64,000 nt of DNA, from assembly GCA_963818965.1 (NCBI GenBank), contig CAWFUG010000012.1:1-64000 (forward strand). Direction: 5' to 3'. The notes beneath the pieces were generated by a model. The model was not told where the DNA came from. It was given only the letters and a program-made list of their open reading frames with translations, and did no database searches. The DNA comes from an uncultured Verrucomicrobiae bacterium (lineage in GTDB: Bacteria; Chlamydiota; Chlamydiia; Chlamydiales; Rhabdochlamydiaceae). Positions within the stretch are counted from its first letter, which is position 1. Each line of letters starts with the position of its first letter. Both the position numbers and the translations under genes were made by a program. This document shows, in pieces, positions 11,791-14,759 of this stretch.

Positions 11791-13486
11791 ATGAAAACTC
11801 TATTTCTTTTACTGATTTCTTATGCTGGGTTCCTTTCACAGTGCTATGCAAACTTCATTCCTATTACACTATCTGAACGACAATTATGCGATCTTGAGCT
11901 GATTTTAAATCAAGGCTTCCATCCACTGACAACTTTCATGAACAAGGCCGATTATGATCGCGTACTGAAAGAAATGCGGCTAATGGATGGAACACTGTGG
12001 CCCATCCCCATTATTTTAGATATTTCAGAAAAAATTAAACAGCAAATCGAAGATACCGGCACCTCTCAGTTGGCTTTATGCGACCAAGAAGGAAAAACAC
12101 TAGCCTACTTTGACACCTCTGACTTATGGGCCCCAAATAAAGAAGAAGAAGCTCTATCTGTCTATGGAACTACTGATCGCGCTCATGCTGGTGTAGACCA
12201 TCTCTTTAGAAAAATTGGAAATTACTATGTTGGAGGAAAAATCACTAAAATAGCGAATCCTCAGCACTATGATTTTCAATCCTTGAGAAAGACCCCACAA
12301 GAATTAAAAGCGCTATTTAAAGAAAAGGGCTATGACAAGATTGTCGGATTTCAGACGAGAAACCCAATGCACCGCGCCCATTTAGAATTGACAATGCAGG
12401 CTGCTAAAAAAACAGGAGGCCACCTTCTTCTGCATCCTGCAGTGGGAGAAACAAAAGTTGGAGACATCGACTACTTTACGCGTATTAAATGCTACCAACT
12501 CCTTTTGCCTTATTATCCCAGCGATTCCGTCACCTTAAGCCTTTTGCCAATCGCCATGAGGATGGCTGGTCCCAAAGAGGCTCTGTGGCATGCCATTATT
12601 CGTAAAAATTATGGATGCACCCATTTTATCGTGGGAAGAGATCATTCAGGACCTGGAAAAGACCAAAACGGAATCGACTTCTATGACCCTTATGCAGCTC
12701 AAGAGCTTGTGATGAGTCACGCCGAAGAAATTGGTATTGAAATTATTAACTCTCAAGAAATCGTCTACGTCCAAGAAGATGGCAATTATCAATCTGTCGA
12801 TAAGGTGGATCCTAATAAGACAATTCTCAGAATCTCCGGTACCGAAATTAGAAAAATGCTCGGGGAAGGACTCGCTATCCCCGGATGGTTTAGTTATCCC
12901 GAAATAACAGAAAAATTAAAAAAAATCTATCCTCCCAAATCCCAGCAGGGAATTACTCTTTTTTTTTACAGGACTTCCAGCTTCAGGCAAATCCACCATT
13001 GCAAATGCTTTAGCAATCAGACTCAAAGAAGTTCAAGATCGCCCCATCTCTCTTCTCGATGGAGAGTATGGTTCGACAGCATCTGCTAGTGAGCTCGGAT
13101 TTTCAAAAGAACACCGTTCTCTAAATGTGCGCCGCGTGGGCTTTGTAGCTAATGAAATTACAAAAAATGGAGGGATTGGAATCTGCGCCCTAATCGCCCC
13201 CTATGAAGAAGATCGTCTCTATAACAGAAAGTTGATATCCCCCAGTGGAAACTACATTGAAATCTATGTTAGTACCCCTCTACAAGAGTGTGAAAATCGA
13301 GATCCTAAACAGTTGTATTCACTGGCCAGGCAAGGTAAACTGACCGGATTTACAGGGATTGATGACCCTTATGAAAAACCCCTCCACAATGAAATCACCA
13401 TCGATACAACACAAAAGTCGGTCGGCGAAGCCGTGGACACGATCATTTGCTATCTCATTGAAAAAAATCTTATACCAAAACGATAA
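11791..13486 (+). CDS. sat/cysC: Bifunctional sulfate adenylyltransferase / adenylylsulfate kinase, split by a +1 indel in a T9 run near 12960
   Basis: QTRNPMHRAH, MRMAGPKEALWHAIIRKNYGCTHFIVGRDH; after the shift TGLPASGKST P-loop and GFTGIDDPYE. Confidence 0.92.
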
Positions 13487-13487
13487 C

Positions 13488-14759
13488 ATGAAAAATTGCA
13501 CTTCTACACCCATCTTCAACAACATTAAAACCCTGATTATAATCACAACATTGTTGCTATTTTGCACAGTAAATGCAGATGCATCCACCCAAGATAGAAT
13601 CATCTTTTTTCATATTCCAAAATCTGGCGGCGTAAGCGTTTCTTCACTACTCATGAATGAATATGATCTTAGCCAAATCAGCAACCCCAACCCAGAAAAC
13701 ATTTGTTTGTATTCGTATGGAACGCACTCTAGTCTTTTTACTATCCAAAAAAACCTAGAGATTTCCAAGTTCAAATTCATTACTTTTTTAAGAAATCCTA
13801 TTGATCGGATCCTAAGCGAGCATCGTTATTGTATACGAAAGCACAATGCAAATCCTGATATCCTTATTGCTCATAATCTACCCCCTGAAGGGGATCCTAT
13901 AGAAACAGCATCCAATAACATGTGCAAATCATTATCTGGACTAGATGACAAAAATCCACTCATTCCAATTGAAGCACATTTAGAGAGTGCAAAAAACACA
14001 TTGAAAGATAAATTCTTTTTCTTGGGAATTACAGAAAAAATGGAAGAATCCATTCATTTGCTCTACTCAAAATTGGGATGGAAAATTCCTGAAGAAATTC
14101 CTCATTTCAATAAAACAGAAGATATTACATTTCCTCCCGATGTATTGCAAAAAATCGCAGAAAGAAACTGGGCAGACATTGAACTGTATGAATATGTCTT
14201 AGGCCTCTATGACATTCAAAAAAACCAAATTTCCATTTCCTCTACCCCCCCCTCGGATGAGGAAATAAATTTTGTCACTCAGTGCCTGTATACGTTTGAT
14301 CAGAAATTAAAAAATGGATATGGATGGGGGTTCAGAGAACTGTTCGATGCTGAAAGTGTCTACAGATGGGCCATTGAAACCAATGAAGCCGGAATCGATT
14401 TTCACCTTCAACCCGACTGGGATTATACTATTCAATGCACTATGTTGATTCAACCCATATTTCACAATCAACTTCATCTTTTTGTGAATGGAATAGAAGT
14501 TCCCTTTCAATCAATTGATTGTGCAAACGACAAATCCATGGAGTACCGATTTTCAACATATCAAGCGAACATTCCTAAAAACCTTATCACAAAAGGAGAA
14601 AAAACAAGGATCGTTTTTAAAATGACCTCCCCTGAAGACCCCCTCCTCTATGCAATTTTTAAGGAAGACCATCCATTCCAATCCATTAACATGAATTATC
14701 TTATAGGAAAATTTGGCCTTAAAGAAATCAGGATTTCACAGATCAGCAGAGAAGCTTGA
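13488..14759 (+). CDS. PAPS-dependent sulfotransferase (Sulfotransfer_2-like) with N-terminal signal/anchor and an extra C-terminal domain
   Basis: FFHIPKSGG (5'-PSB loop) and TFLRNPIDRILSE (3'-PB motif); starts 1 nt after the cysC stop. Confidence 0.85.
   Translation: MKNCTSTPIFNNIKTLIIITTLLLFCTVNADASTQDRIIFFHIPKSGGVSVSSLLMNEYDLSQISNPNPENICLYSYGTHSSLFTIQKNLEISKFKFITFLRNPIDRILSEHRYCIRKHNANPDILIAHNLPPEGDPIETASNNMCKSLSGLDDKNPLIPIEAHLESAKNTLKDKFFFLGITEKMEESIHLLYSKLGWKIPEEIPHFNKTEDITFPPDVLQKIAERNWADIELYEYVLGLYDIQKNQISISSTPPSDEEINFVTQCLYTFDQKLKNGYGWGFRELFDAESVYRWAIETNEAGIDFHLQPDWDYTIQCTMLIQPIFHNQLHLFVNGIEVPFQSIDCANDKSMEYRFSTYQANIPKNLITKGEKTRIVFKMTSPEDPLLYAIFKEDHPFQSINMNYLIGKFGLKEIRISQISREA

Follow-up and report, generated by a model that had tools for sequence, protein, structure and literature searches.

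Export-like leaders on a fused PAPS synthase and its sulfotransferase are conserved in chlamydia-like bacteria: analysis of a probably decaying gene pair and its relatives

Where in a chlamydia-like cell are sulfate groups activated and transferred? This question is raised by a locus on contig CAWFUG010000012.1 of an uncultured Verrucomicrobiae bacterium (assembly GCA_963818965.1; Rhabdochlamydiaceae in the GTDB lineage), of which positions 1 to 64,000, here called the window, were analyzed. At 11791-13486 on the plus strand, the window contains a gene for a fused ATP sulfurylase/adenosine 5′-phosphosulfate (APS) kinase, a 3′-phosphoadenosine 5′-phosphosulfate (PAPS) synthase termed Sat/CysC in the following, and directly behind it a sulfotransferase gene. 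An earlier note on this DNA had pointed to export-like N-termini of both proteins and had suggested that a complete sulfation unit may work outside the cytoplasm. PAPS synthesis is textbook cytoplasmic chemistry consuming two ATP per PAPS and, to our knowledge, the known bacterial PAPS-dependent sulfation enzymes are all cytoplasmic, their product being exported afterwards. We consider it rather probable that both proteins are targeted for export and that the whole PAPS/sulfotransferase pathway resides outside the cytoplasmic membrane. Apart from the broken kinase of the local copy, the enzymes are ordinary members of their families; unusual is the predicted location common to the whole pathway. 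Thus, what comparative genomics suggests as new is a pathway-wide extracytoplasmic targeting of known enzymes, while the instance in the window is probably a decaying copy.

The predicted Sat/CysC product begins with MKTLFLLLISYAGFLSQCYA, followed by NFIPITLSERQLCDLEL. Its leader of 20 codons (11791-11850, plus strand) is composed of the n-region MK, the hydrophobic core TLFLLLISYAGFL and the c-region SQCYA, and translation confirmed that it lies directly in front of the conserved segment. The Shine-Dalgarno-like sequence AGGGG reported in the earlier note was read at 11783-11787 (plus strand), 3 nt 5′ of the start codon. It also proved correct that no internal methionine allows the leader to be skipped: the ATG at 11791 is the start and the sole ATG, GTG or TTG codon in the open segment before the conserved motif, and the next in-frame methionine sits within the PUA-like domain. 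Pfam assigned PUA_2 to residues 23-154 (E 8.4e-40) and ATP-sulfurylase to residues 164-378 (E 5.3e-82) of the open reading frame (ORF), which is open and intact over this mature sulfurylase part (11851-12958, plus strand). Since PUA_2 starts at residue 23 and there is no alternative start, the leader replaces the conserved fold at this end and does not overlap it. In alignments with solved ATP sulfurylases, the query is matched only from residue 22-26 onward, and the aligned part starts at residue 31 of the yeast chain and at residue 10 of the Aquifex Sat/CysC. The leader is therefore an addition and not a strand of the Sat fold, and the reservation that the N-terminus might be the normal structural strand of Sat does not apply.

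The identity of the enzyme is clear. The local sulfurylase part matches yeast ATP sulfurylase (1g8f) with an E-value of about 1e-118, and the values for solved homologs range from approximately 1e-102 to 1e-119 (1r6x 3.2e-119; 2gks 5.6e-102). To the ortholog of genome G009, this part is 65% identical. The stretches FQTRNPMHRAH and VGRDHSGPG are present and their columns are invariant or nearly so in the alignment of Sat/CysC homologs; we take QTRNPxHRAH and GRDHAG to be active-site stretches of ATP sulfurylase. The APS kinase domain is encoded in a shifted frame (12968-13486, plus strand; frame open from 12935, stop codon 13484-13486), in which the P-loop GLPASGKST can be read. PF01583 was found at 12956-13405 (E 1.4e-48), and the fragment 13127-13486 was also recognized (E 9e-32). 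PUA_2, ATP-sulfurylase and APS_kinase all exceed the Pfam cut-offs and are arranged as in intact orthologs, an order that is shared by cytoplasmic Sat/CysC and fungal enzymes (Aquifex aeolicus 2gks, yeast 1g8f, Penicillium 1i2d). The solved proteins possess no hydrophobic leader but approximately 30 (yeast) or nine (Aquifex) ordinary residues before the aligned core, whereas in the local protein a leader has been added and the kinase part is frameshifted. A promoter-like site was listed at 11732-11760, but such sites are no commoner than in shuffled sequences (6 versus a mean of 7.5), and a terminator scan revealed no terminator-like site.

The sulfotransferase gene (13488-14759, plus strand, 423 aa) begins one base after the Sat/CysC stop codon. 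Its likely start is the ATG at 13488 (MKNCTSTPIFNNIK...); an overlapping TTG at 13359 is an unlikely start. The export-like N-terminus before FFHIPK, which had been claimed for this coupled gene, was recovered together with the HIPK loop: KTLIIITTLLLFCTVNADA is present, followed by STQDRIIFFHIPKSGG. The leader comprises 32 codons (13488-13583, plus strand) with MKNCTSTPIFNNIK, the core TLIIITTLLLFCTV and the c-region NADA. It is followed by a Sulfotransfer_2 catalytic domain with the nucleotide-binding loop HIPKSGG (13584-14195, plus strand), which was detected by Pfam, by profile comparison and by Foldseek. PF03567 covers residues 33-236 with 40.8 bits (cut-off 22). Both HIPKSGG and FLRNPIDRILSE are present, H42, K45, R102 and S110 being invariant or at least 90% conserved in the family alignment; presumably, HIPKSGG is the 5′-phosphosulfate-binding loop and R...S the 3′-phosphate-binding motif. 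When the family profile was compared with the PDB, the only clear relatives were heparan sulfate (HS) 6-O-sulfotransferase (5t03, E 1.5e-16) and HS 2-O-sulfotransferase (3f5f, E 1.8e-9). The AlphaFold model (pLDDT 92, pTM 0.87) displays the leader as a lone helix (residues 10-31), the sulfotransferase domain and beta strands at residues 265-418. HS 6-O/2-O enzymes were also top-ranked by Foldseek (5t05, E 2.4e-7, probability 1.00). The C-terminal region including the stop codon (14196-14759, plus strand) was modeled as a beta-sandwich resembling carbohydrate-binding modules (CBM) of families 6 and 35 (CBM35 2w1w, TMt 0.56; CBM6 5fui, 0.57, and 1uxz, 0.54), while Pfam gave no match to this domain at E-values up to 1. 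CBM-like domains are typical of extracytoplasmic glycan enzymes. The protein thus models as an HS 6-O/2-O-sulfotransferase-like domain plus a CBM6/35-like sugar-binding domain, and because of these relatives and this domain a glycan acceptor is likely.

Leaders are also common in the sulfotransferase family. Among 35 relatives listed, 28 have a leader, two are borderline, one distant, short protein has none and four are N-terminally truncated. The family occurs in 22 of 400 genomes of the phylum that were scored, with a hydrophobic N-terminus in all 24 parsable copies. The distance from the hydrophobic core to the HIPK(S/T)GG loop amounts to a median of 15 residues (range 10-33); since the core ends that close to the PAPS-binding loop, there is no stem region in this family.

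To assess the leader of Sat/CysC, the best 120 of 8000 scored candidates were taken as nearest homologs, 117 of which could be analyzed. Leaders were called in this study with a rule-based script of our own. A leader in front of the conserved ...LT(Q/E)RQLCDLELL core was found in 108 of the 117 proteins; three were borderline (below the threshold), three had none and three were N-terminally partial. Two of the three leaderless homologs begin with an ordinary ...PHGG... N-terminus. The closest named sources among the matches listed were 'Parachlamydia sp.' and 'Verrucomicrobiota bacterium' metagenome-assembled genomes. Within the phylum, Sat/CysC was detected in 34 of 401 genomes. Thirty loci were fetched, comprising 24 with a leader, four without (G183, G301, G030 and G350) and two that were not parsed; one of the latter (G229) was later read as leader-bearing, giving 25 of 30, and G291 is leader-bearing too. 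The trait is kept down to 37-50% identity even though the leader sequence itself is not conserved, which is the usual behavior of signal peptides. By contrast, none of 80 non-chlamydial Sat/CysC loci among the matches listed (Rhodobacterales, Acidobacteriota and others) has a real leader: two were flagged by the threshold, but on inspection by eye these ORFs extend too far, their normal start being located further in. A set of 150 representatives at 50% identity contained 71 N-terminally complete and parsable proteins, 13 of which have a hydrophobic N-terminus, five to six being short leaders of the chlamydial type. The other seven are multidomain proteins, 700-1135 aa in length, which have a membrane segment at the N-terminus. 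Such large proteins (P0184, P0190, P0191, P0201, P0206, P0249 and P0262, also P0209, P0276 and P0297) are arranged as membrane segment, linker, PUA_2, ATP-sulfurylase and APS kinase, some with an additional pyrophosphatase or Inositol_P domain, and are probably eukaryotic fusions.

The alignment of homologs recommended in the earlier note thus revealed that the leader is kept in chlamydial Sat/CysC proteins and sulfotransferases as well as in standalone APS kinases, and absent from non-chlamydial Sat/CysC. In 20 genomes, 16 kb around Sat/CysC were fetched and 119 neighboring ORFs were scanned. A sulfotransferase gene adjoins Sat/CysC in seven of 21 genomes (window included). Five of these have both leaders (the genome of the window, G000, and G142, G175, G140 and G291), two have neither (G350 and G030) and none is discordant; as the genomes are related, this is a pattern and not a statistic. 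In G030, a gene for a leaderless CysQ-like phosphatase is located between Sat/CysC and the sulfotransferase, and the window's own Inositol_P-family protein also lacks a leader. Since leaderless versions of the same pathway exist, the leader can be regarded as a switchable localization trait.

Standalone APS kinases fit into this picture. In all five that were examined (G273, G223, G325, G163 and G113), a leader directly precedes the P-loop, and several of them adjoin leader-bearing sulfotransferases. The operons of G223 (L172) and G113 (L175) have the order TauE-CysD-CysN-MFS-CysC, in which CysC alone bears a leader while CysD and CysN have none, so that APS would be made in the cytoplasm of these organisms. 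In G351 (L177), CysN-MFS precedes a gene for a PUA_2-APS kinase protein with a leader. These three genomes belong to one family (f5), and the MFS gene beside the kinase is conserved in them; a membrane transfer of APS or a related nucleotide would fit this arrangement. A pyrophosphatase was found in three of five genomes with a leader-bearing Sat/CysC and two N-termini were read (that of G328 was not parsed): the G234 protein has no leader, and the G284 protein has a possible one, but an internal start matches the leaderless form. Downstream of the leader-bearing Sat/CysC and sulfotransferase genes of G291 (L162, 6931-12431), there are three ORFs without a Pfam match, each with a leader; from its sequence, this run looks like an operon of exported proteins.

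What kind of leader is this? The hydrophobic cores of the 108 homologs with a leader are 12 residues long in the median (range 8-18, a single core reaching 18). The n-region carries a mean net charge of +2.3, being at least +1 in 106 proteins, the 15 residues after the core average -0.25, and the N-terminal side is the more positive one in 100 of the 108. Small residues at -3/-1 shortly after the core were found in 106 proteins, 61 of which are strong by our own score. In the window, the Sat site lies between CYA and NFI (C at -3, A at -1), and the sulfotransferase signal reads ...NNIK, then TLIIITTLLLFCTV, then a site between ADA and S. By this rule-based reading, both leaders possess the charged n-region, the core of 7-15 residues and the small -3/-1 residues of Sec substrates cleaved by signal peptidase I. 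A lipoprotein signal was rejected, as the Sat leader reads LSQC, with Q at -1, and contains no lipobox, the pattern of which is [LVI][ASTVI][GAS]C. The twin-arginine translocation (Tat) pathway is defined by a twin arginine in the n-region; as neither leader contains RR, a Tat signal was rejected as well. Nor do the leaders resemble a type II signal anchor, i.e. a span of 18-25 residues plus a stem, given their short cores and the missing stem, and by this anatomy they fit neither a membrane span nor a tether with N-out/C-in orientation. Hence, they are most likely cleaved Sec signal peptides, with the catalytic domains predicted to be outside.

The metabolic background of the organism has to be considered as well. 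The genome (2.24 Mb, 12 contigs, 88% complete) encodes three full-length NTT/TLC nucleotide transporters and a fragment of another, while none was found in 14 well-known control genomes. Chlamydiae are energy parasites, and ATP from the host has to cross their outer membrane and periplasm before NTT proteins of the inner membrane take it up. The usual argument that the space outside the cytoplasm contains no ATP may therefore be weakest in this group. No member of the PAPS reductase family was detected in the 88%-complete genome, whereas the same search was positive in 14 of 14 controls; sulfate assimilation was on this ground rejected as the purpose of the pathway, and PAPS would serve sulfation only. 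There is neither a second APS kinase gene nor another Sulfotransfer_1/2 gene in this genome. A search for the Chlam_OMP6 family gave no match in the genome, nor in the control genomes.

From these data, the following mechanism can be proposed. In a chlamydia-like, ATP-importing bacterium, a two-gene operon would encode a Sat/CysC that makes PAPS and a translationally coupled sulfotransferase. Sec-type signal peptides would place the pathway in the periplasm, possibly with onward transfer to the vacuole lumen. Sulfate and host ATP in transit through the periplasm could be converted to PAPS on site, and the sulfotransferase would then sulfate a polysaccharide located at the bacterial surface or close to it. 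Relatives lacking a PAPS-forming enzyme would depend on PAPS of the host. Going further, we tentatively envisage, with little confidence, that many environmental chlamydiae run a Golgi-like pathway in the periplasm or vacuole lumen, in which glycans would be built and sulfated by exported PAPS synthases or APS kinases, by HS-type sulfotransferases with sugar-binding modules and by neighboring leader-bearing glycosyl- and methyltransferases. Such a pathway might be powered by host ATP, S-adenosylmethionine and, in some species, host PAPS in transit, and its product might be a bacterial, sulfated, glycosaminoglycan-like surface polymer.

Several points weigh against an extracytoplasmic pathway. 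The whole case for export comes from a rule-based reading of sequences, and ATP use, sulfate activation and removal of pyrophosphate in the periplasm would be unprecedented. Operons of the CysDN type need APS to cross the membrane, which is an extra, unproven step. Of the 22 genomes bearing a sulfotransferase gene, 11 have a strong APS kinase match and 11 have none, and the PAPS supply of the latter would be unexplained unless it is derived from the host. In a midpoint-rooted FastTree tree, of which the topology was read, there is no single clean clade of leader-bearing proteins. Finally, the local frameshifts described below are not covered by reads and may be assembly errors.

Different explanations of the leaders have to be compared with the proposed one. 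By a crude rule of our own, such an N-terminus is found in 18% of the ORFs of this genome that reach 150 aa (290 of 1619), and one instance is therefore unremarkable. It is nevertheless highly improbable, and already contradicted by the comparative data, that the leaders are functionless, being hydrophobic N-termini that arose by chance or products of mis-called starts, since there is no alternative start codon, the trait but not the sequence is conserved down to 37% identity, none of the 80 non-chlamydial homologs has it and the leaders of the partner enzymes co-vary. Judged by these sequence comparisons, the leader is a conserved trait. More serious is the alternative, already raised in the earlier note, that it is an uncleaved anchor; as a signal anchor, it would tether both enzymes to the outer face of the inner membrane (N-in/C-out). 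The charge asymmetry would give the same orientation as a cleaved peptide, the c-region is weak in many relatives, a strong -3/-1 site being present in just 61 of 108, and among solved proteins the sulfotransferase comes closest to Golgi type II enzymes; eukaryotic Golgi sulfotransferases are membrane-tethered in this topology. On the other hand, a median core of 12 residues, with one in 108 reaching 18, is short for a membrane span, the approximately 15 residues up to the PAPS-binding loop leave no room for a stem, and the two sites of the window, CYA before N and ADA before S, are good cleavage sites. The anatomy thus favors a cleaved peptide and makes the anchor unlikely. Still less likely is a tether facing the cytoplasm, by which the enzymes would use cytoplasmic ATP to sulfate a lipid-linked glycan before it is flipped. 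It would remove the ATP problem and would agree with the leaderless CysD and CysN of the G223 and G113 operons and with the glycosyltransferase genes that adjoin some modules. However, it is opposed by the positive-inside rule (106 of 108 n-regions positive, 100 of 108 more positive on the N-terminal side) and by cores that are too short to span the membrane. Moreover, the MFS gene kept between CysN and the leader-bearing kinase fits a transport step, and leaderless versions of the pathway exist, together with a leaderless CysQ.

Export might also go on past the periplasm, so that the enzymes, via type II secretion or vesicles, reach the vacuole lumen or the host cytosol, where they would modify host or vacuolar glycans using host ATP, sulfate or PAPS. 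Sec-dependent chlamydial proteins are known to reach the host. The 11 of 22 sulfotransferase-bearing genomes without a strong APS kinase match would need PAPS from outside, a T2SS pseudopilin-like gene (T2SSJ) is present in the window at 24508-25170, and the lumenal glycogen enzymes of C. trachomatis (PMC4829429) provide a precedent. Against this stands that the sequences do not tell the periplasm from a further destination, and that the missing APS kinases may partly be gaps since the genomes in question are 82-100% complete. We regard this destination as rather improbable, though somewhat less so than a tether at the inner face. Thus, for a sulfation unit outside the cytoplasm, as it was suggested in the earlier note, the conserved and co-varying leaders speak in favor; that this unit functions in the present genome is not supported, as the local copy is probably not working.

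The repaired protein of which the earlier note spoke is indeed needed. A T9 homopolymer (12959-12967, plus strand) marks a frame change between the sulfurylase and kinase parts, which was recognized from the frames and by tblastn: with the G009 ortholog as query, frame 1 is used over 11863-12966 and frame 2 over 12920-13447. Intact orthologs run through this place as ...GITFFFTGL.... Further downstream, about eight codons in the LDGD...R motif of the APS kinase are out of frame (13067-13087, plus strand), flanked by two compensating single-base indels outside homopolymers. The present frame reads LLDGEYGSTASASELGFSK, another window frame MVRQHLL and the orthologs LLDGDIVRQHLSSELGFSK. LLDGEYGST has thus taken the place of LLDGDIVRQ and the conserved D and R, whose columns are at least 90% conserved in the homolog alignment, are lost in the present frame; we take LDGD...R to be the substrate/metal motif of APS kinase. 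With three indels in total, there is no uninterrupted frame of 560-600 aa but an open frame of 436 aa, while the sulfurylase part (385 aa) and the sulfotransferase are wholly open. The other matches in the phylum are single open frames without internal stops, those of the 29 other fetched loci measuring 521-633 aa.

A second line of evidence comes from contig C6 of the same assembly, which contains a version of the locus without the genes. C6:8925-10544 corresponds to window 10090-11709 (98.2% identity) and C6:10565-11837 to window 15037-16309 (99.8%), and the junctions were read. A cassette of 3.3 kb (11710-15036) with Sat/CysC, the sulfotransferase gene and a 67-aa remnant of a phosphoribosyltransferase (PRTase)-like gene is missing from C6. 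The C6 locus (C6:8925-11837) stems either from a variant strain of the population that was sampled or from a duplication accompanied by a deletion. The remnant is N-terminal and located at 14824-15027 on the minus strand. In G001, a genome of the same genus, the PRTase-like frame runs into the contig end and comprises at least 128 aa; it overlaps or lies beside an AdoMet decarboxylase gene, and neither Sat nor a sulfotransferase was found in that genome. The cassette is accessory and probably decaying in this genome, from which the module is probably being lost. Because of the three indels and the second locus version, the local sulfation unit is probably not working; the earlier note underweighted both. 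Some product could also be restored if DNA or RNA synthesis slips within the T run.

It is also possible, but we consider it doubtful, that the local gene is intact, the three indels being assembly errors, and that a functional exported module is present in this genome. A T9 homopolymer, where errors classically arise, contains the first indel, both the sulfurylase part and the sulfotransferase are fully open, and public reads do not span the indel sites. Small shares of the stretch were found in three soil-metagenome runs of one study, as contigs of 151-178 nt identical to the window and as three further short matches that are partial and contain mismatches; neither 12959-12967 nor 13067-13087 is bridged by any of them, and no RNA data set was listed. 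However, the remaining two indels lie outside homopolymers, the 47 further window ORFs that were scanned show no sign of being split, the Sat/CysC matches elsewhere in the phylum are each open in a single frame and the cassette is missing from C6. Genome-wide, a frameshift signature occurs at nine of 176 strand-counted A/T runs of at least nine nucleotides, compared to 0.6% at random positions; the nine include the Sat/CysC T9 site and repeated insertion sequence copies. Homopolymer errors are therefore not widespread in this assembly. Furthermore, the sole match to the SulP family in the genome (C9:99695-100950, L091) is likewise broken, being split over two frames with an inserted palindromic stretch that resembles a miniature inverted-repeat transposable element and reads similarly on both strands. 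Two identical transposase-like copies (C2:49805-49836 and C9:449484-449515) each have two A9 runs at a frame change, which may be a programmed or slippage-prone frameshift.

How do these genes relate to known systems? In NodPQ/NodH, RaxPQ/RaxST and mycobacterial CysNC/Stf, genes for PAPS supply are clustered with a sulfotransferase gene and a secreted or surface molecule is decorated. The clustering is alike here, but it is the enzymes that bear export signals. The Golgi HS 6-O/2-O-sulfotransferases (5t03/5t05, 3f5f/4ndz; 16-20% identity), to which the sulfotransferase is most closely related among solved proteins, are lumenal glycan enzymes that are type II anchored, have a stem and use imported PAPS. 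The window protein differs by its short signal-peptide-like leader, the lack of a stem and the added CBM6/35-like domain. AssT of E. coli is also a periplasmic sulfotransferase, but it belongs to an unrelated family, moves sulfate between phenols independently of PAPS and has no ATP-dependent donor synthesis. Lig E is a precedent for an ATP-dependent enzyme with a periplasmic targeting signal, though both enzyme and organisms are unrelated, and its ATP source is likewise unsettled. In C. trachomatis, glycogen enzymes reach the lumen of the inclusion by secretion, and UDP-glucose is imported there (Gehre et al. 2016, PMC4829429). This system, too, has cytoplasm-type enzymes with nucleotide substrates outside the bacterium that are fed by host metabolites, but its enzymes use type 3 secretion and have no Sec leaders, and it concerns UDP-glucose and glycogen instead of ATP and PAPS-dependent sulfation.

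In the literature searched, which did not extend to supplementary tables, no description of exported PAPS-forming enzymes or chlamydial sulfotransferases was found, and a search by terms in a chlamydial pangenome paper (PMC8242063) gave no mention of such enzymes in the text so covered. Whether chlamydiae make their own sulfated glycans has been addressed in earlier work, as cited in PMC2229832; the present finding names concrete genes with which this can be tested. If the predicted location is true, the periplasm or vacuole of an energy parasite would be a metabolically active, ATP-containing compartment, adding to the glycogen synthesis in the lumen of the C. trachomatis inclusion, the single case documented so far. 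If the Golgi-like pathway existed, the old notion that chlamydiae bridge to host cells with a heparan-sulfate-like molecule of their own making would gain a genetic foundation. With and without leaders, the versions of the pathway amount to an experiment of nature in relocating enzymes. The finding is more modest when this genome is taken by itself; here the cassette is accessory and probably decaying.

Some neighboring genes of the window deserve mention. At 15027-15470 (minus strand) lies an AdoMet decarboxylase gene (AdoMet_dc, residues 32-137), whose product has the leader MFMRRVLCLFFFSVFSMGC..., i.e. another cofactor-dependent enzyme of cytoplasmic type with an export-like N-terminus. This gene was found in 16 of 41 genomes, and all 12 orthologs that were read have the leader. 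Upstream of Sat/CysC, there are three paralogs (4011-5099, 6499-7518 and 7442-8653, plus strand) with approximately 84% identical DNA and a leader ending in ...(V/I)AGNDEDIAKKY, and a fourth is located on C6. Pfam assigned no family to the three at E-values up to 1. Their nearest clusters in a protein atlas, mostly of Chlamydiota, are Chlamydiota hypotheticals (0.97), and GT-A-type nucleotide-sugar transferases appear as leads (0.92-0.93). Two methyltransferase-like proteins with hydrophobic leaders are encoded at 5129-6388 (MIQQIVRFLSLGLSILYIGYIRA...) and 8852-9970 (MKWLICTLYLIQTLQA...) on the plus strand; in G009, a related leader-bearing methyltransferase-like gene lies beside Sat/CysC. Glycan genes are present at 18717-24553 and 52236-61199, where a GT2 gene, two GT9 heptosyltransferase-like genes, a UDPGP fusion, two GT11 fucosyltransferase-like genes and a gene for a Sulfatase-family membrane protein were identified. 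About 168 nt at 8650-8819, in the gap between the third paralog and the following methyltransferase-like gene, recur twice on contig C11 with 95.8% and 93.4% identity.

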